4,903 nt of DNA from a virus (Duplodnaviria > Heunggongvirae > Uroviricota > Caudoviricetes), in the IMG/VR virus record IMGVR_UViG_2663762857_000011, positions 1 through 4,903 of that record. The stretch is one strand, 5' to 3'. Every line of letters begins with the position of its first letter. The stretch's first letter is position 1. The position numbers and the translations under genes are program-made. This document shows positions 1-4,903 of the stretch, piece by piece. Under the pieces are notes generated by a model. It was not told where the DNA came from and did not search any database. It saw only the letters and a program-made list of their open reading frames with translations.

Positions 1-144
1 ACCGGGTTCTCCTTTCCATTTTTGGCAAACAAAAACTCCTGTTAAATTGCCGTGCTGGTTAACAGATGTATGCCCTACGATGTAGCTTCCTTTAGTTGCT
101 TTCTCTGCCTTTTCACGCAGTGCCTGATAGTTAATTTGGGTCAC
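1..144 (-). CDS. Hypothetical protein, partial: N-terminal 48 codons, continues past the left edge of the window
   Basis: GTG at 144..142 overlaps the upstream TGA stop (GTGA). GGAGG lies 7 nt upstream. The frame is open for 48 codons to position 1 (VTQINYQALREKAEKATKGSYIVGHTSVNQHGNLTGVFVCQKWKGEPG). Absent from the ORF track, presumably because it is truncated. No homology recognised. Confidence 0.4.
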   Translation of the reverse strand, partial: MTQINYQALREKAEKATKGSYIVGHTSVNQHGNLTGVFVCQKWKGEPG

Positions 145-365
145 TCTTCATCCTCCAAGTCGGCAACGGCGTCCATCACATCAGAACCGCGAATAACCTC
201 AAAAGCACGGCAGGCCATTTGAAATACCAGTTGCTCTTGCGGATGCGGTGATTCCCAATATTTGAATCCAGGGCGATGCGCGTACCCCATCATTGAATAA
301 AAATCACCAGCAAGCTTAATCGCGGCATCAACAAGCTCTCTGTTAGTCATTCTTTTTCCGCTCAC
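141..365 (-). CDS. Small hypothetical protein with acidic C-terminus (about 75 aa from GTG; ORF track gives 85 aa from an upstream start at 398)
   Basis: ORF track 141..398. The preferred start is GTG at 365..363, preceded by AAGGAGG at 6 nt spacing and overlapping the upstream stop as GTGA. C-terminus ...VMDAVADLEDEE. Leftward early operon context. No recognised domain. Confidence 0.55.
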   Translation of the reverse strand: MSGKRMTNRELVDAAIKLAGDFYSMMGYAHRPGFKYWESPHPQEQLVFQMACRAFEVIRGSDVMDAVADLEDEE

Positions 366-973
366 TGGTTGCCTCCTTTGCGAATCTGTTCCGCCCATTC
401 TTCTAGGGATTTCTCCGCATATTCACCGGACAGGCCATCAATCGGGTGTGGTTCATTAGCCAACTCTTCTTTCGCTGACAGAATCATGCGTGTAACGTCG
501 AAAACTTCACGTAAAGACTTATTGATAAATCCGTGATTGAAAGCAGCAGCAAGACGGCTTGCGGTATAGTTAATCCCCTCGTTGCGTGCTTCCGCACGAA
601 TTTCAGCCAGGAAATCATCGGTGGCTGGAGTTTCGCTGTGGTGCAGGGCATCGTTGATAATCATTGCAGCAACACCAGCCTGCCCTGCATCCGTGACCGA
701 CACATGCTCAAGAGTTACGGCCATTGCGTGTTTCAGCCCCGCATTCTCCGCCGCCAGCGCCGAAAACTTCTCGTGTGCCAACTTAACAGCTGCATCAGCC
801 TGCTTAATTGACTCAATCGCTTTCTGTTGGTCTTCGGACAGAGCCAAAATCTTGGCCTCCGCTTCAGCAAATTTACGCACCAGATATTCAGCATTTGTTT
901 CATTCACTTTCAGATCTCGTGGTACACATTTCCCGCGAAGAAACCCTTCCATTTCGAAAACATTCATGCGCAT
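362..973 (-). CDS. Hypothetical Ala-rich, probably alpha-helical protein (203 aa), early-left operon
   Basis: ORF track 362..973. ATG at 973 has GGAG 8 nt upstream and overlaps the upstream gene end by 10 nt. An alternative ATG at 967 forms an ATGA overlap with the upstream stop. The stop overlaps the next start (GTGA). No family recognised from sequence alone. Confidence 0.7.
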   Translation of the reverse strand: MRMNVFEMEGFLRGKCVPRDLKVNETNAEYLVRKFAEAEAKILALSEDQQKAIESIKQADAAVKLAHEKFSALAAENAGLKHAMAVTLEHVSVTDAGQAGVAAMIINDALHHSETPATDDFLAEIRAEARNEGINYTASRLAAAFNHGFINKSLREVFDVTRMILSAKEELANEPHPIDGLSGEYAEKSLEEWAEQIRKGGNQ

Positions 974-1500
974 GTGCGTAACTCCGATAACTCGTTAAAG
1001 CGCTCCATAAACATCCCGTAGGCATGGCTCGGAGCCAGTGGAATAACTTTGAACATTTCTGTTGCCGGGATACCTTCCAGTACTGGCCAGAAAGAGCCAT
1101 CATCAAGCCCGAGATCGCGACGTTCGGTTGCCAGCATAATGAGATCGGCATATTTCACTGGCGTGCTCATAACAGGAGGTAACCCGTATTTCTCACGGAT
1201 TACGGCGTCTATTTTTTCTTCCATCCGTTTATAGTCAGGAAGAAGGCGTTTCAGTGGCGCGGGGATGTCCTGGCAATACGCTTCTGTTGCATCATGCATT
1301 AATGCTTCAAAAGCAAATTCCTGCGGTACCAGCTGGCTGCAAAGCACCGCATGTTGGGCGACGCTGTAGAAATGAGAAAGATGACCGGCAAAGCGGCAGA
1401 TATTTGAAAGGGAAACCGCGATATCGTTAATCACGATGTCGTCTTTATTTATCTTGTCATAATAAAAATGCTTCCCGGAAAAAGTTTTAATAAATGACAT
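964..1500 (-). CDS. yfdR: HD-domain phosphohydrolase, YfdR-like 5'-deoxynucleotidase (178 aa)
   Basis: Start trimmed from the ORF-track 964..1569 to ATG at 1500..1498 (MSFIKTF...), which has GGAG about 7 nt upstream. HD signature: H...H (RFAGHLSHFYSVAQHA) followed by ALMHDATEAYCQDIPAPLKR, resembling the YfbR/YfdR pattern recalled from memory. Length equals the 178 aa recalled for prophage YfdR. The symbol is a family-level assignment, not a verified ortholog. Confidence 0.75.
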   Translation of the reverse strand: MSFIKTFSGKHFYYDKINKDDIVINDIAVSLSNICRFAGHLSHFYSVAQHAVLCSQLVPQEFAFEALMHDATEAYCQDIPAPLKRLLPDYKRMEEKIDAVIREKYGLPPVMSTPVKYADLIMLATERRDLGLDDGSFWPVLEGIPATEMFKVIPLAPSHAYGMFMERFNELSELRTCA

Positions 1501-1541
1501 TTTGTTCTCCACGTTATATGCGCTGCACCGCTCTGAATTTT

Positions 1542-1592
1542 GATTGCAGCAATCCAGCCCATTTGACATGGGATGATTGCTGCAATTTTTTT
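1542..1592 (+). terminator. Terminator-like extended hairpin on the plus strand (12 bp perfect stem, inner 5 bp stem, then T-run), opposing the minus-strand operon
   Basis: attgcagcaatc (1543..1554) pairs with gattgctgcaat (1575..1586). The loop holds a nested palindrome cccat-ttgac-atggg. Six to seven T follow (1586..1592) on the plus strand only. Lies between the RdgC-like stop (1591..1593) and the HD gene start (1500). Confidence 0.45.
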
Positions 1593-2508
1593 AAGTTGTT
1601 GGATTTTGGCTTTTATCTTCTTTGTAAGAAAGAAGGTCACACATCAAATTAACTACCTTGCTGAATTGGAAAAGGTCAGCGCCAGTCTGATGACGCCACT
1701 GGAATGCTTTATCATCTTCATCATTAAATGTCTGAGATTGAGTATTGATGCGCGAAAAATGGAAATTTTCGGTAAGAATGAAGGTCACACCGCAACCGGA
1801 TAACTCCATTTTATCAGCAGTGAAACTACTACTAAGGCTATCGGCCAGTTCGCTTTGAATTGACTCATGCTCAGCTGAGTAGCGAATAATTTCCTTTTGA
1901 TCTGCGTAGCGTGATAGCTGAATATAATTTCCGACAGTGAATCCTTCAAATGCATTGGCTGCACCATTGATGTAGTTATTCAGGCGTGTAGTCAGTCCAT
2001 TCTTGATATCACTGATGTTGATTGTTTCTGTTTTCACTGAACCGACAACCTTAATCAGCATTGCGCATACCATACCGGCTATTATTTTATTGGTTGTGTT
2101 GATTACCAATAATTTCTCATCAGTGCTGTACAATGCAAGAATCAGCGTAGACTTAACAAATGCCTGTTTGCATAGATCTACTCGTACGTTATCAATAATG
2201 GTCAGTCGTTCGGCACGCTTTAATTTATTCCCGGACATATTTTCGATTGTTTGGATTCGAGAATTAGCTTCTTTCATGACGACATGTCGGGGAATTATTT
2301 TCTGATCATGACGGATTACCATTGCGTACCCACCAGATATCGGAGTTACCAGTTCACCAGTGACAGGATTCTCTACAAAAGAGGACCGTGAAAGTTCTGT
2401 TTCCCCGATTTCAGAATAAGGGAGTTCGAGAAGATGACCTTCAATAGCCTGTATACTAGGTAATGTTGCTCGGTACACAATTGCGTTACGAAATTTTGGT
2501 AATTTCAT
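1591..2508 (-). CDS. rdgC: RdgC-like recombination-associated protein (306 aa)
   Basis: Start trimmed from the ORF-track 1591..2658 to ATG at 2508..2506 (MKLPKFRNAIVYR...), preceded by GAGGA at 7 nt. The N-terminal motif FRNAIVYR resembles RdgC FKNLMVYR. Further blocks (GYAMVIRHDQKIIPRHVVMK; KLKRAERLTIIDNVRVDLCKQAF) align with E. coli RdgC as recalled from memory. The upstream in-frame extension is a TTG-initiated read-through of the structured leader with no RBS. Confidence 0.75.
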   Translation of the reverse strand: MKLPKFRNAIVYRATLPSIQAIEGHLLELPYSEIGETELSRSSFVENPVTGELVTPISGGYAMVIRHDQKIIPRHVVMKEANSRIQTIENMSGNKLKRAERLTIIDNVRVDLCKQAFVKSTLILALYSTDEKLLVINTTNKIIAGMVCAMLIKVVGSVKTETINISDIKNGLTTRLNNYINGAANAFEGFTVGNYIQLSRYADQKEIIRYSAEHESIQSELADSLSSSFTADKMELSGCGVTFILTENFHFSRINTQSQTFNDEDDKAFQWRHQTGADLFQFSKVVNLMCDLLSYKEDKSQNPTT

Positions 2509-3107
2509 TCTATTTTCCTCTGCACAAGATATTAGTTTCTCCACAAAACAGAGAAGAACACCTGCGGTGGCAGCCGCCCGGGTGGATTGGGTTATGAGCC
2601 CGTCGTCCGGTGATGCTCTTCTCTGTTTTGTAAAAAGAGCGGTACCAGCCGGAAGCAAGTGTACAAACTGGTACCGCCAAAGCAGTGGCTGCTGTGGTGA
2701 CCGATGCTGATCTCCGGCTTGCGGTTATTTCAGACTCTCACGGGCGTTTAATTGCCCCGCCGAACAGCTCTTTTCCGCAATAGCTGCAATGTCTTTCGTG
2801 CATCAGCCTGCGCATTCACCACAACGCTGAGAGCACTTAGCCAGTTACGGCACCACACTTTGTCGCGGTTCCATAAATGCCCTCATCGTTGCACCCTGGT
2901 CTCTTCCCAGGTGTCAAACCGAACCGCCACGCTGGTTAGGCGTCTTATCAGCATCCTCATTGACTTGCACATTCCGGCTACCTGGTTTGTTTGCCCGAGC
3001 AAGGAGTGGATTGTCCCCTTTAACGTCCCCAGACCGCTAACGACGCATGTGCCATACGCCGTGTTACAACCAAATTTTGTTTAATCTTGCCTGTGACATG
3101 TTTCTTT
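2509..3107 (-). other. Long (~590 nt) untranslated, GC-enriched, inverted-repeat-rich leader between the pL-like promoter and the first leftward gene; candidate structured RNA or regulatory element
   Basis: No minus-strand ORF of 60 aa or more. All three minus frames are interrupted by stops (one frame has stops at 3066, 3039, 2916, 2847, 2805 and 2727). Local GC is about 55-57% against roughly 40-45% in flanking genes (estimated by eye). Multiple hairpins, including the 18 bp inverted repeat at 2543..2631 and GGTACCAG/CTGGTACC at 2641..2675. Confidence 0.4.
2543..2631 (-). repeat. 18 bp inverted repeat flanking a 53 nt GC-rich loop (89 nt hairpin) just upstream of the RdgC-like RBS
   Basis: Plus acaaaacagagaagaaca (2543..2560) against tgctcttctctgttttgt (2614..2631). 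The single mismatch is A/C on the plus strand but a G.U wobble on the minus-strand RNA, so the stem is fully paired only in the leftward transcript. Confidence 0.6.
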
Positions 3108-3142
3108 TAGATACATTATGTATCTCAAGGGTACATTGTCAA
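3108..3142 (-). promoter_or_regulatory. pL-like early leftward promoter (-35 TTGACA, 16 nt spacer, -10 CATAAT)
   Basis: On the minus strand, TTGACA at 3142..3137 and CATAAT at 3120..3115. Sits immediately downstream of the cI terminator and upstream of the leader. The -10 is overlapped by the 17 bp palindrome. Confidence 0.5.
3109..3125. promoter_or_regulatory. Operator-like 17 bp perfect palindrome (agatacat-t-atgtatct) overlapping the -10 of the pL-like promoter (oL candidate)
   Basis: Perfect 8 bp arms around a single central base. The position overlapping a promoter -10 is typical of a repressor operator. Confidence 0.45.
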
Positions 3143-3146
3143 GTAT

Positions 3147-3169
3147 AAAAAAACCTGCCGAAGCAGGTT
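3147..3169 (-). terminator. Rho-independent terminator downstream of the repressor gene
   Basis: Minus-strand RNA: AACCUGC-UUCG-GCAGGUU followed by five or more U. That is a 7 bp stem with a UUCG tetraloop, starting 12 nt after the cI stop at 3181..3183. Confidence 0.7.
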
Positions 3170-3180
3170 ATAAATATTGA

Positions 3181-3855
3181 TTAGGCCTTTATTTTGTATC
3201 TTCTTGGTTTTCCTGAGAAAATTACTGTGCCAATTATAGAGCAATTACCGTTGATCTTAATGTAAGGTTCAGGCCAGTTTGGGTTTAATGCTTTGAGGTA
3301 ACGCTGTGTTCCATCTTCTATCAACCGCTTAAAGGTGGTTTCGCCTGTATCGTGCATCAATGCAATAACGTCGTCACCGTGGCAGGCAGGGACTTCAGGA
3401 TCTACAAAAATCATGTCTCCCGGGCGGTACTCATCAATCATTGAATCACCAATCACCCGCAAGATATAAGTCATTTCGCCACAGGGTACAGGGCAGGGAT
3501 AAGTTTCTGCTGTGCTCAAATCAACCTCAGAATAGCCAACTTCTTTCCATGCTCCGGCCTGTACCCATGATATGACAGGGACTAACGTTATTTGTTTGTT
3601 AGTAATTGAAACATCAGGTTTTTTTGTGATGTTTGTTGTCTGGTGTTCTTGATCAAGCCATCCGACAGGCAGGTCGAAACATTTTTCGATGTGCCGTGCC
3701 ATGCTGTCACCGATATTTTTAGTAGCACCATCTCCCATAAACCTGCTGGTCTGGGTTGGCTCGCGATCAATCATGGTGGCAAAGGAAGAATTCCCGCCAA
3801 CACCATCTCTCAGTTTTCTGGCGTTAGACCGCCGGATGTCATGGACTGTTTTCAT
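3181..3855 (-). CDS. Prophage repressor, CI/LexA family (N-terminal HTH plus C-terminal S24 autopeptidase), 224 aa
   Basis: ORF track 3181..3855. The C-terminal domain has the S24 signature: GDSM with Ser138, FKRL with Lys176 (38 residues apart), and a candidate Ala100-Gly101 autocleavage site (VQAGAW). The N-terminal 70 aa is HTH-like. Divergent from the Cro-like gene and followed by a terminator. Confidence 0.9.
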   Translation of the reverse strand: MKTVHDIRRSNARKLRDGVGGNSSFATMIDREPTQTSRFMGDGATKNIGDSMARHIEKCFDLPVGWLDQEHQTTNITKKPDVSITNKQITLVPVISWVQAGAWKEVGYSEVDLSTAETYPCPVPCGEMTYILRVIGDSMIDEYRPGDMIFVDPEVPACHGDDVIALMHDTGETTFKRLIEDGTQRYLKALNPNWPEPYIKINGNCSIIGTVIFSGKPRRYKIKA

Positions 3856-3871
3856 AACGAAATTAAAACCT

Positions 3872-3890
3872 TTGTACCGATAGGGTACAA
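3872..3890. promoter_or_regulatory. Operator-like 19 bp perfect palindrome TTGTACC-gatag-GGTACAA in the cI/cro intergenic region (oR candidate)
   Basis: Perfect 7 bp arms with a 5 bp spacer. Located 17 bp from the cI start codon and about 55 bp upstream of the cro start. GTAC-containing half-site-like motifs recur at 3934..3948 and 3131..3136. Confidence 0.45.
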
Positions 3891-3945
3891 GTATCTTTAA
3901 GGTTCATCTCAATCATGTAGTATGTATATTGGAGGTACATATTGT

Positions 3946-4146
3946 ATGAAAGCGTATTGGGACTCTTTAACCAAAGAACAGCAGGGCGAGTTGGCCGGAA
4001 AAGTTGGCTCAACACCAGGCTACTTACGGCTGGTTTTCAATGGTTATAAAAAAGCCAGTTTTGTGCTGGCTAAAAAACTTGAGCAATGCACGTCAGGTGC
4101 AATTACGAAATCTGACTTAAGACCGGATATCTATCCGAAAGATTAA
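3946..4146 (+). CDS. Cro-like small HTH regulator (YdaS/Cro family), 66 aa
   Basis: Start trimmed from the ORF-track 3922..4146 to ATG at 3946, which has GGAGG at 3931..3935. The upstream ATG at 3922 has no RBS and would translate the SD itself. The C-terminal motif ...SGAITKSDLRPDIY resembles the YdaS-type Cro pattern (...G.V....LRPD). Divergent from the repressor. Confidence 0.75.
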   Translation: MKAYWDSLTKEQQGELAGKVGSTPGYLRLVFNGYKKASFVLAKKLEQCTSGAITKSDLRPDIYPKD

Positions 4147-4177
4147 CAGAACACCTTCAATTTTTAACCACAGAACG

Positions 4178-4747
4178 ATGAGGCTAACCGTGGGTAAGCA
4201 TCACTGGAAAGTAGAAAAACAGCCTGAGTGGTACGTGAAAGCTGTCAGAAAAACTATCGCGGCGTTGCCGGGGGGTTACGCTGAAGCTGCTGAGTGGCTG
4301 GATGTAACAGAGAACGCTTTATTCAATCGCCTTCGTGCCGATGGCGATCAGATTTTCCCGCTGGGATGGGCAATGATTTTACAACGTGCTGGTGGAACTC
4401 ACTTCATTGCTGACGCTGTGGCGCAGTCTGCAAATGGCGTCTTTGTGTCTCTTCCTGACGTCGAGGATGTGGACAACGCCGATATTAACCAGCGTCTGCT
4501 GGAAGTCATCGAACAGATCGGGAGTTACTCAAAGCAGATTCGTTCGGCAATCGAAGATGGGGTAGTGGAACCGCATGAGAAAACAGCAATTAACGACGAA
4601 CTGTATCTTTCAATTTCGAAGCTCCAGGAGCATGCAGCACTGGTCTACAAAATCTTCTGCGCTCCAGAAAAGAGTAACGCCCGCGAGTGTGCAGCTCCGG
4701 GCGTCGTGGCGTCGATTGCTTCTGGTTGTGGAGAAACTAACGCATGA
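4178..4747 (+). CDS. CII-like / YdaT-family early regulatory protein (189 aa; possible GTG start at 4190 giving 185 aa)
   Basis: ORF track 4178..4747. Sits directly after cro, the position that CII or YdaT occupies in lambdoid prophages. GAGG lies 6 nt before the in-frame GTG at 4190, whereas no clear SD precedes ATG 4178. The family assignment is by position and general resemblance only. Confidence 0.6.
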   Translation: MRLTVGKHHWKVEKQPEWYVKAVRKTIAALPGGYAEAAEWLDVTENALFNRLRADGDQIFPLGWAMILQRAGGTHFIADAVAQSANGVFVSLPDVEDVDNADINQRLLEVIEQIGSYSKQIRSAIEDGVVEPHEKTAINDELYLSISKLQEHAALVYKIFCAPEKSNARECAAPGVVASIASGCGETNA

Positions 4748-4903
4748 ATAGTTTAACGGCAAATAACCGTTTGCATATTGATTCTGCAATTCCGGGACGT
4801 TACACTGCTCAGGCACCTTATAAAGCGGGGGCCGGGCGTGGAAACCCGAAATTCAATATAGAGCACAACCGCGCTCATGCGGTTTTTTCGTGTCATGAGC
4901 ATC
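4744..4903 (+). CDS. Hypothetical protein, partial: N-terminal 53 codons, continues past the right edge; occupies the position of a replication or early gene
   Basis: ATG at 4744 overlaps the upstream TGA (ATGA). GGAG lies about 10 nt upstream. The frame is open to the window end (MNSLTANNRLHIDSAIPGRYTAQAPYKAGAGRGNPKFNIEHNRAHAVFSCHEH). No family recognised. Confidence 0.4.
   Translation, partial: MNSLTANNRLHIDSAIPGRYTAQAPYKAGAGRGNPKFNIEHNRAHAVFSCHEH

Follow-up and report, generated by a model that had tools for sequence, protein, structure and literature searches.

At one end of a 4,903-nt stretch of Caudoviricetes DNA (positions 1 to 4,903 of IMG/VR record IMGVR_UViG_2663762857_000011; hereafter the window), four minus-strand genes follow one another with overlapping stop and start codons, the first of them encoding a YfdR-like HD hydrolase. 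The question raised by this arrangement is whether the four products form a dedicated machine, as proposed in a first-pass annotation that took the overlaps to imply a stoichiometric complex, or whether the genes are neighbours that have been brought together by recombination. The reading favoured here, with a probability of about 80%, is that the four are independently shuffled accessory genes as opposed to a dedicated four-protein machine. The genes, and the modules of the second of them, are as follows.

964..1500, minus strand: yfdR, HD-domain 5'-deoxynucleotidase, 178 aa, 98% identical to K-12 YfdR
362..973, minus strand: 203-aa EaE/Oad2-family gene, overlapping yfdR by 10 nt
866-973, minus strand: N-cap, residues 1-36, of which the first 35 are identical to YfdS
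725-865, minus strand: coiled coil, residues 37-83, common to PF13935 proteins such as P0023
629-724, minus strand: variable cassette, residues 84-115
365-628, minus strand: conserved C-module, residues 116-203, dN/dS 0.10
141..365, minus strand: gene for a 74-aa acidic three-helix protein, phrog_4132, E 1.8e-42
1..144, minus strand: Ead/Ea22-like gene, N-terminal 48 codons, PF13935 at 34.6 bits against a cut-off of 27

The overlapping minus-strand genes, each with its own SD sequence, can be read directly from the sequence, as first described, and the same four gene calls are present in phage record MT225100. The yfdR gene extends from ATG 1500 (SD GGAG, 1510-1507) to TGA 966-964, and the 203-aa gene from ATG 973 (GGAG at 985-982, 8-nt spacing) to TGA 364-362; ATG 973 is favoured over ATG 967, which would give an ATGA overlap, because homologues begin MRM or MKQM. 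The 74-aa gene starts at GTG 365, in a GTGA overlap with the upstream stop codon (SD AAGGAGG, 378-372), and ends at TGA 143-141. PGAP prefers a start at ATG 352, giving 69 aa; in the Citrobacter and Leclercia homologues, however, the start codon is a true ATG that aligns with GTG 365 and has its own SD. The partial gene starts at GTG 144, again within a GTGA overlap (SD GGAGG, 156-152), and runs off the window.

Setting of the genes in an early operon

The window is best read as the middle of the early-left, pL-type operon in a lambdoid E. coli prophage that lacks N and has the mosaic character of e14, CPS-53, SfV and Stx phages. The location of the four genes, a phage early operon, is one in which genes for host manipulation and anti-defence are known to accumulate. 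To the right are a cI-like repressor gene, cro, a cII-like gene and isrK; to the left are RdgC and YfdR, with integrase and excisionase further left in full loci. The elements upstream of yfdR are as follows.

3181..3855, minus strand: cI-like LexA-family (S24 peptidase) repressor gene, ymfK type, PF00717, E 1.5e-26
3152-3169: intrinsic terminator after the repressor gene, from a terminator scan
3115..3142, minus strand: pL-like early-left promoter, TTGACA-16-CATAAT, 11 of 12 consensus positions
2509..3108, minus strand: untranslated structured leader of ~600 nt, from the pL-like promoter to rdgC, fold z = -4.1
1591..2508, minus strand: RdgC-like gene, 305 aa, PF04381, E 5e-31; phrog_724, E 1.7e-76
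1543..1586, minus strand: rdgC-yfdR intergenic hairpin, 12-bp perfect stem and inner 5-bp stem, without a U-tract

The repressor gene is annotated as LexA family or ymfK. The promoter has an annotated counterpart in phage Ayreon. The palindrome AGATACATTATGTATCT overlaps it, as does a GGTACA half-site, a hexamer that occurs eight times against 1.35 expected and is clustered at both early promoter regions. The leader contains a 25-nt inverted repeat (2543-2567 and 2607-2631) and was found in 2690 of 5426 complete E. coli genomes, in which nothing is annotated on it. No credible ORF, N-like or otherwise, was found within it, and an Rfam search of the leader returned no match; a boxA-like motif, CGCTCTTTTTAC, was discarded as not significant (one match against 0.65 expected). 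Neither an N gene nor a proven antitermination element was found for this operon. Downstream of the leader, rdgC fills the slot occupied by yfdP-yfdQ in CPS-53-type prophages, the latter cassette being present in loci L002, L004, L005 and L016. The hairpin that follows (-29.6 kcal/mol, z = -3.1) is regarded as part of the rdgC cassette because homology with yfdQ-type loci stops at ~1540. Annotators of phage Ayreon place a terminator at the equivalent spot, and without antitermination the strong hairpin could therefore partly shield yfdR and the later genes from upstream transcription.

Inactivation of the LexA-like repressor would be expected to permit transcription from the promoter at 3142-3115, with the transcript crossing the leader before proceeding through rdgC, yfdR, the EaE-like gene, orf74 and the Ead/Ea22-like gene towards xis and int. 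Co-transcription of the set from this promoter is suggested by consensus scans and synteny.

Overlapping junctions as the default in early operons

The three junctions comprise a 10-nt overlap between yfdR and the 203-aa gene, and GTGA overlaps between the 203-aa and 74-aa genes and between the latter and the partial gene. The proposal that such overlaps denote a stoichiometric complex does not withstand comparison with the rest of the same prophages, in which overlaps of 1-10 nt are present at five of nine left-operon junctions and at all eight right-operon junctions. The partners also change from phage to phage. Coupling of this kind is accordingly found at most early-operon junctions, as opposed to being specific to the four-gene set. 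Stop/start overlaps, with SD sequences inside the last codons of the upstream gene, represent the normal compact packing of such operons, and would ensure co-expression without marking a protein complex. In lambdoid early operons, then, overlap is the default packing and is uninformative with respect to complex formation, which corrects a tempting inference.

YfdR and the yfdQRST cluster

The gene described as encoding a YfdR-like HD hydrolase proved to be yfdR itself: 174 of 178 residues are identical to the K-12 protein (dN/dS 0.06), the match to phrog_318 has an E value of 1.7e-109, and yfdR is the RefSeq name. The Pfam matches, to YfbR-like and HD_3 (residues 41-104), are below the gathering cut-off (24.3 against 25.9), and the HD dipeptide, in ALMHDATEAY, is located within the aligned region. 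A PDB sequence search with YfdR returned Atu1052 as the sole match. The literature invoked in the first-pass annotation was also accurate, in that K-12 YfdR is a dNMP phosphatase that binds DnaA domain I (Phe46) (PMC4776307), and multicopy yfdQRST inhibits replication initiation (Noguchi & Katayama 2016; PMC4776307). The minimal set for the K-12 phenotype is yfdQ and yfdR together with either yfdS or yfdT, and the effect was observed only on overexpression of YfdR with these partners (PMC4776307). By extension from the K-12 protein, the YfdR of the window would act as an HD-type dNMP phosphohydrolase, bind domain I of DnaA and be able to contribute to damping host replication initiation.

Comparison with the CPS-53 yfdQ-yfdR-yfdS-yfdT cluster of K-12 revealed that, aside from the orthologous yfdR, the gene that follows opens with the identical 35-residue YfdS N-cap at the same 10-nt overlap, and that both loci lie at the same point of a prophage early-left operon, with a LexA-like repressor gene upstream. 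The resemblance ends there. An RdgC-like gene stands in place of yfdP-yfdQ, such that yfdQ (DUF2303) is encountered only in other loci; the match to YfdS is confined to residues 1-35, with a coiled coil, a variable cassette and a C-module of EaE type where YfdS has its DUF551 domain; and yfdT is absent. The 74-aa protein was considered as a YfdT homologue and rejected (E 0.18). With yfdQ, the DUF551 portion of YfdS and yfdT all missing, the window therefore lacks the published minimal set, and the suggestion that the partners are new members of such a module was not upheld. YfdR is the only partner that has been characterised biochemically, and in this lineage it has become separated from those that its published phenotype requires.

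The 203-aa gene belongs to the EaE/Oad2 family

The second gene encodes a helical protein, as originally described, with recognisable relatives. P22 eaE aligns with it at 35% identity (tblastn, E 6e-14), and HK446 gp27 (Oad2) at E 5e-33; full-length matches were obtained to phrog_14548 and phrog_614 (E ~1e-90), and the gene is annotated 'Eae protein' in MT225100, with Eae or EaE being used in several phage records. Homologues are numerous: no fewer than 7998 proteins scored, and P0001, one of the close clusters, comprises 113 members. The N-cap, the LAAENAG coiled-coil anchor, the ETPATDAFLAE anchor (ETPATDxFLAE) and the RKGGNQ terminus are common to gp27 and the 203-aa protein, and in both P22 and HK446 the gene likewise lies upstream of an eaD-type gene. 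The 203-aa protein differs from both relatives in its central cassette and in a longer, different C-module, and its gene follows yfdR as opposed to a DUF2737 gene. No Pfam match to PF13935 was obtained at E <= 0.01, although the coiled coil and C-module recur in PF13935-bearing chimeras such as P0023.

The central cassette is the most variable part of the protein, with 12 unrelated versions among the top 120 homologues, all located between invariant anchors, a length range of 28-94 aa in proteins of this type, and a dN/dS of ~1.1 as against 0.10 for the C-module. The gene after yfdR was found with three architectures and one common N-cap, and the YfdS-type N-cap always adjoins yfdR downstream, with the 10-nt overlap, whatever the C-terminal part. 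Given this constant adjacency, YfdR and the N-cap may be functionally linked, a point that counts against the favoured reading. The AlphaFold2 model is all-helical, with a helix spanning residues 27-93, and has a pLDDT of 54 and a pTM of 0.30, and is therefore too poor for a fold search; a PDB sequence search returned nothing meaningful. The protein is probably an obligate coiled-coil oligomer, and may function as an EaE/Oad2-family coiled-coil adaptor in which the swappable central cassette probably sets which host or defence protein is bound.

The 74-aa protein and the Ead/Ea22-like gene

The small acidic protein was correctly described as such (pI 4.87, net charge about -5), but is 74 aa in length and not 75. 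The ORF is under constraint (pN 0.12-0.16 against pS ~0.85); 87 close clusters, mostly of 74 aa, were identified, and a deep profile search extended the domain, which carries an HPxE motif, to 389 clusters at 50% identity. Searches of Pfam, NCBIfam and PADLOC with the 74-aa protein gave no match, a PDB sequence search nothing meaningful, and a Pfam scan of 20 longer proteins containing the domain revealed no domain in any. The AlphaFold2 model (pLDDT 91) had no match in a fold search of PDB structures, and a single match in BFVD, to U5PW22 of Acinetobacter phage Presley (TM 0.86). In Citrobacter the homologue is located between TraR-like and NinX-like genes and in Leclercia among unrelated genes, and it overlaps the unrelated gene before it by TGATG or ATGA; a 178-aa gene near the Citrobacter homologue was considered as a possible yfdR and is not YfdR. 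Speculatively, this small acidic helical protein probably acts by binding or inhibiting a protein of the host.

The partial gene encodes a sequence identical to the N-terminal part of an Ead/Ea22-like protein of 182 aa in RM8385, and the full-length 182-aa homologue matches PF13935 at 119 bits. The statement that the three partners are without recognisable domains consequently stands for the 74-aa protein, which is the only truly anonymous member of the four, and falls for the partial (PF13935) and 203-aa (EaE/Oad2) genes.

Two of the three partners are thereby placed in named families, the kind of assignment that the first-pass annotation had set against its own proposal; the families are poorly characterised.

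Ead/Ea22 proteins constitute a pro-lysogenic coiled-coil family. In lambda and Stx phages, early transcription from pL covers the exo-xis/ea region, and Ea22 has a modular structure (PMC10834534, PMC7093339). The present locus is similarly an early, pL-driven accessory region lying between recombination genes and xis/int, its fourth gene encodes a PF13935 protein, and PF13935 proteins also share the coiled coil found in the 203-aa product. As in Ea22, the layout is modular, with an N-terminal region followed by a coiled coil and a C-terminal domain that varies. Conversely, the 203-aa protein itself lacks a PF13935 match, the orf60a/61/63/73 set is absent from the window, and the C-terminal domain fold of lambda Ea22 is not represented there.

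Mosaic distribution of the genes

Co-occurrence and order of the four genes are not conserved, with neighbours varying between loci. Among 5426 complete E. coli genomes, positions 1-1000 survive intact in just 9, whereas pieces are present in 3417, and breakpoints are evident at ~103-113, 360, 629, 865-870 and 1540. Each gene, and each sub-gene module, forms its own mosaic block with other neighbours elsewhere. The EaE cousin P0108, for example, is found in N-cIII-kil-abc2-DUF2737-[EaE]-Ead operons without YfdR, and in P22 the order is eaE ... eaD. The four genes would thus appear to be separate accessory cassettes, joined through recombination at conserved linkers. The closest relatives of the block are in the Stx1a phage Lys8385Vzw (MT225100; PMC7946995) and approximately nine STEC chromosomes, in which the yfdR/203-aa/74-aa/Ead block is 98.8-99.8% identical, with identical gene calls and overlaps; these differ in having yfdP-yfdQ and another repressor, where the window has rdgC and the ymfK-type repressor. 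The exact combination in the window was found in none of the 5426 complete E. coli genomes.

Alternative interpretations

Several features could be reconciled with a variant of yfdQRST in which the four proteins, including new subunits, assemble stoichiometrically round YfdR and stop DnaA-dependent host replication. YfdR here is all but the same as the DnaA-binding K-12 protein, the K-12 phenotype required partner genes in addition to yfdR, the N-cap is always retained after yfdR, and the junctions are tightly coupled. However, the gene that is needed in K-12, yfdQ, is replaced by rdgC, DUF551 and YfdT are absent, the overlaps are generic across operons, and other phages do not preserve synteny between the partners and YfdR. 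Furthermore, pull-downs with the K-12 proteins revealed no high-affinity binding of YfdQ, YfdS or YfdT to YfdR or to DnaA, and the same study warns that the effect of overexpression could be artefactual (PMC4776307). A complex of this type is accordingly considered quite improbable. Still harder to sustain is a pseudogene interpretation, in which the 203-aa ORF would be the remnant of a decayed yfdS joined by chance to the sequence after it, leaving two or three real genes. In RM8385, PGAP annotates only a 45-codon pseudogene at the N-cap ('incomplete, missing C-terminus'), with the rest unannotated, but the ORF is intact, its full-length homologues are abundant and include both PHROG families, the N-cap and C-module are under purifying selection, an intact Eae protein is annotated in MT225100, and the architecture is that of the functional HK446 Oad2. 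The dN/dS values and the abundance of full-length homologues effectively refute the pseudogene interpretation, and indicate that an EaE-family gene that is intact and under selection has been reduced to a YfdS fragment in the RefSeq annotation.

An anti-defence role independent of YfdR, in which the 203-aa and possibly the 74-aa protein would directly inhibit immune effectors such as OLD-family ABC-ATPase/TOPRIM proteins, is less easily dismissed, and is entertained here as a tentative possibility. HK446 gp27 (Oad2), with which the 203-aa protein shares homology and architecture, has been shown experimentally to inhibit OLD directly, in a 2026 preprint that also refers to this type of locus as an anti-defence hotspot (bioRxiv 10.64898/2026.07.10.737580). 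The diversity of the central cassettes and their elevated dN/dS point in the same direction, as does the presence of the Leclercia 74-aa homologue in one operon with a Tad2/Sequestin-like gene; the small protein is, in addition, acidic and predicted to be well folded, as is typical of phage inhibitor proteins. Against this, the 203-aa protein is only 35% identical to Oad2 and differs in its C-module, and the inhibition is highly sequence-specific, in that an HK75 homologue with 54% identity fails to inhibit OLD (bioRxiv 10.64898/2026.07.10.737580), such that OLD inhibition cannot be transferred to the 203-aa protein. PADLOC defence-system models had no match among five window proteins, other functional matches and structural analogues were likewise lacking, related Ea22 proteins are tied to lysogeny control and not to anti-defence (PMC10834534, PMC7093339), and the evidence comes from a single preprint. 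Were the anti-defence role correct, the hypervariable central cassette would set target specificity.

A bolder and rather doubtful extension is that the 203-aa protein belongs to a large, unrecognised class of polymorphic adaptor-inhibitors comprising a conserved N-cap, a coiled coil, a hypervariable cassette and a C-module, in which the cassette would determine specificity and the N-cap would act as a tether to YfdR/DnaA, with the 74-aa HPxE-motif domain constituting a second inhibitor family. If so, HK446 Oad2 (anti-OLD) would be the first characterised member, and the cassettes would target different host immune or replication proteins. With its Oad2 architecture and hypervariable cassette, the EaE family could reasonably be included when Stx phages are screened for anti-defence genes. 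Lys8385Vzw, a mitomycin-C-inducible and plaque-forming Stx1 phage (PMC7946995) that carries the four-gene block, provides a ready experimental system.

Organisation of the immunity and early-left region

The 4.9-kb window derives from an E. coli lambdoid prophage, of which it is the immunity and early-left region. The stretch constitutes a repressor-controlled early-left operon, its genes packed together through stop/start codon overlaps.

Features of the window (coordinates, strand, description)
4813-4889, plus: isrK Hfq-binding sRNA (Rfam RF01394; 57.7 bits, gathering score 50)
after the cII-like gene, plus: Rha-family gene, start only
4178-4747, plus: CII/YmfL-like gene
3946-4146, plus: Cro-like gene
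3181-3855, minus: LexA-family S24-peptidase repressor, ymfK type
3169-3152, minus: intrinsic terminator
3142-3115, minus: near-consensus pL-like promoter (TTGACA-16-CATAAT)
2509-3108, minus: leader of ~600 nt lacking an ORF, separating the pL-like promoter from the first early-left gene
1591-2508, minus: RdgC-like gene
1500 (ATG) to 966-964 (TGA), minus: yfdR; SD GGAG 1510-1507; 90-nt gap after rdgC
973 (ATG) to 364-362 (TGA), minus: 203-aa gene; SD GGAG 985-982; 10-nt overlap with yfdR
365 (GTG) to 143-141 (TGA), minus: 74-aa gene; SD AAGGAGG 378-372; GTGA junction
144 (GTG) to beyond the window, minus: partial gene; SD GGAGG 156-152; GTGA junction

Candidate operators comprise a 17-bp perfect palindrome, AGATACATTATGTATCT, which overlaps the -10 element of the pL-like promoter, and a palindrome, TTGTACC-N5-GGTACAA, in the cI-cro intergenic region (candidate sites at 3098-3136, 3873-3889 and 3934-3939); the GGTACA half-site occurs eight times in the window against 1.35 expected. 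The isrK match lies just within the start of the Rha-family gene and is followed by a terminator-like hairpin (4867-4884). Megablast against 5426 complete E. coli genomes located pieces of the window in 3797, and coverage of at least 80% in one record only, in which the gene after yfdR differs; the window thus combines common parts into a new mosaic. Public phage and STEC records already contain its sequence, and the kind of region is well known, the window being another mosaic member of the lambdoid exo-xis or P22 'ea' accessory region.

Gene calls and overlapping junctions

Direct reading of the minus strand bore out the first-pass observation of four overlapping genes, each with its own SD sequence, and the same four calls are made exactly in MT225100, the record of Stx1a phage Lys8385Vzw. 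An alternative start of the 203-aa gene at ATG 967 would give an ATGA junction with yfdR. The small acidic protein was correctly described except in length, which is 74 rather than 75 residues; PGAP starts this gene at a later ATG (352), but homologues are mostly of 73-74 aa, and prophages of Citrobacter and Leclercia carry the long form with a genuine ATG that is served by an SD of its own and overlaps the stop codon of an unrelated gene upstream, making GTG 365 the better start. The ORFs are genuine genes, as indicated by a pN of 0.12-0.16 against a saturated pS of ~0.85 for the 74-aa ORF, a pN of 0.14 against a pS of 0.78 for the N-terminal cap (N-cap) of the 203-aa protein, and dN/dS values of 0.10 for the C-terminal module (C-module) of that protein and 0.06 for yfdR.

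The overlaps had been taken to imply stoichiometric co-expression, as for a complex. However, overlaps are found at most junctions of both early operons: the left operon of Lys8385Vzw has overlaps of 1-10 nt at five of nine junctions and a 1-nt gap at one more, and all eight junctions in the right operon of strain SW070917 overlap, by 1-4 nt. The last codons of the upstream gene form each SD (...K-G-G-N-Q*, ...L-E-D-E-E*, ...R-I-K-G-E*). Stop/start overlap is therefore how lambdoid early operons are normally compacted, and cannot by itself be read as a sign of a protein complex. Sites at which upstream codons supply the SD lie at 372-378 and 152-156 in the window and at 5594-5610 in comparison locus L005. 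The Ead/Ea22 gene ends in ATCAAAGGAGAGTGATATG (...R-I-K-G-E*), and the C-terminal K/R-G-E tripeptide conserved in Ea22 proteins, the significance of which was described as unknown (PMC7093339), falls on the AAGGAG SD of the following gene; its conservation may reflect a nucleotide-level rather than protein-level constraint.

Module or mosaic

Three agreeing lines of evidence indicate that the four genes do not form one dedicated module. Mosaic breakpoints at ~103-113, 360, 629 (the boundary of the variable cassette and C-module of the 203-aa protein), 865-870 (the end of its N-cap) and 1540 (upstream of yfdR) match gene or sub-gene boundaries. Neighbours change, the 74-aa gene being flanked by TraR-like and NinX-like genes in Citrobacter, and its Leclercia homologue lying amid unrelated small genes. 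Lastly, the commonest EaE cousin (P0108, more than 1000 contigs) occurs without YfdR, in operons of the order N-cIII-kil-abc2-DUF2737-[EaE]-Ead; the P22 order is abc2-orf56-eaE-orf45-eaF-eaD. The block 1-1000 is intact in nine complete genomes, O103 and O157 among them, and in Lys8385Vzw, which is mitomycin-C-inducible and plaque-forming. As a description of the neighbourhood, host takeover or anti-defence is fair; the specific YfdR-centred four-protein complex is unsupported; the first-pass annotation stands as to observation, and in part only as to interpretation. In Leclercia sp. (L009 1548-2423, JALDYA010000004.1), a 291-aa gene matched by the Tad2-like and Sequestin Pfam families, which are anti-Thoeris/anti-CBASS sponge families, shares an early operon with the 74-aa homologue, an example of how operons of this type gather anti-defence genes.

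Induction or infection would give rise to one pL-type transcript encoding a set of independent accessory proteins. The RdgC-like protein would act as a recombination modulator, YfdR, as a dNMP hydrolase and DnaA domain I binder, could help to damp host initiation, and the EaE/Oad2-family protein would serve as an adaptor whose cassette has a host or defence protein as its probable partner. The 74-aa acidic protein and Ead/Ea22 would complete the set; Ead/Ea22 is pro-lysogenic in lambda and Stx phages (PMC7093339, PMC10834534).

YfdR and the yfdQRST precedent

YfdR of the window is identical to K-12 YfdR at 174 of 178 residues. The first-pass account of the literature was accurate: YfdR binds DnaA in a Phe46-dependent manner, and multicopy yfdQRST inhibits initiation (Noguchi & Katayama, PMC4776307). 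The minimal inhibiting set is yfdQ and yfdR with yfdS or yfdT; YfdQ, YfdS and YfdT show no high affinity for YfdR or DnaA, deletion has no phenotype, and the authors allow that the effect of overexpression could be an artefact (PMC4776307). Compared with K-12, the window has rdgC in place of yfdQ and keeps only the first 35 residues of YfdS, and it lacks YfdT. A suggestion that the 'HD family hydrolase' of Lys8385Vzw disrupts the bacterial cell wall, aiding DNA injection (PMC7946995), is unsupported by sequence, the gene being yfdR, which encodes a cytoplasmic early-operon nucleotidase and DnaA binder.

The partner proteins

The three partners of YfdR had been considered devoid of recognisable domains. 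This is not so for the 203-aa protein, which is homologous to P22 EaE (35% identity, E 6e-14), is named Eae/EaE in several phage records, and is homologous to HK446 gp27 (E 5e-33), with which it shares the N-cap, the ...LAAENAG(L/M)K and ETPATDxFLAE(I/V)RA anchors and the ...RKGGNQ terminus.

Segments of the 203-aa protein (residues, description)
1-36: N-cap, identical to YfdS
37-83: coiled coil, shared with PF13935 proteins
84-115: variable segment (cassette), window 629-724
116-203: C-module, nearly invariant

Architectures of the post-yfdR gene in different prophages, with one common N-cap
1: N-cap and DUF551 (YfdS)
2: N-cap and C-module (116 aa)
3: N-cap, coiled coil, cassette and C-module (window)

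Gp27 has been identified as Oad2, which directly inhibits the P2 OLD nuclease and is described as a relative of P22 EaE that is in some cases fused to EaD/Ea22 (July 2026 preprint, bioRxiv 10.64898/2026.07.10.737580). Since a 54%-identical Oad2 homologue was inactive in the same work, anti-OLD activity is not transferable to a 35%-identical protein. The cassette is hypervariable: the invariant anchors FSALAAEN and ETPATDAF enclose 12 unrelated central sequences, 28-94 aa in length, in the top 120 homologues. It has a dN/dS of ~1.1 and 20% identity against 85-95% in its flanks, and a mosaic breakpoint falls exactly at its edge (629). The AF2 model, which is low-confidence and all-helical with one helix at 27-93, fits an oligomeric coiled coil. 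In E. coli O103 RM8385 (L004 7351-7973, NZ_CP028112.1), PGAP calls a 45-codon 'incomplete' YfdS-like pseudogene, leaving ~490 nt unannotated, and shortens the 74-aa gene to 69 aa by choosing a downstream ATG; both calls look like annotation artefacts, and the truncated pseudogene was rejected as under-annotation given the intact ORF, its homology and the selection evidence.

For the 74-aa protein (pI 4.9) the description held, there being no match in Pfam, NCBIfam or PADLOC. Its AF2 fold, predicted with confidence (pLDDT 91), has three helices; a PDB structural search returned no relative, and the sole viral structural match was an uncharacterised protein of Acinetobacter phage Presley, in its C-terminal half. 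A full profile search gave 389 clusters at 50% identity, 104 with E <= 1e-10, in which an HPxE motif and W48 are nearly invariant. The domain stands alone or is C-terminal in proteins of 110-300 aa (window 141-365; proteins P0208-P0350), and no known domain was seen in 20 longer relatives, making this a candidate new, broad domain family without a Pfam entry. The fourth gene encodes the N-terminus of a 182-aa Ead/Ea22-family protein with a PF13935 match above threshold, and so does have a recognisable domain. Of the uncharacterised parts, two are of some interest: the polymorphic cassette of the EaE family and the orphan family to which the 74-aa domain belongs.

Leader and intergenic hairpin

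The leader (2509-3108, minus) is GC-richer and strongly structured (z = -4.1), and a 25-nt inverted repeat (2543-2567/2607-2631) forms a long hairpin directly upstream of rdgC. Copies at 95-99% identity occur in 2690 of the 5426 complete E. coli genomes, at 487 plasmid locations, and in Stx2c phages and phages mEp460, cdtI and Ayreon; nothing meaningful is annotated across these occurrences, an Rfam search gave no match, and a boxA-like motif was not statistically significant. Because carrier phages are without an N gene, the leader could act in cis as an antitermination or regulatory RNA. A second, strong hairpin lies between rdgC and yfdR (1543-1586, minus; -29.6 kcal/mol, z = -3.1), with a 12-bp perfect stem and an inner stem and no U-tract, and may function in attenuation, processing or mRNA stability; the phage Ayreon annotation marks a terminator at the equivalent yfdQ-yfdR gap.
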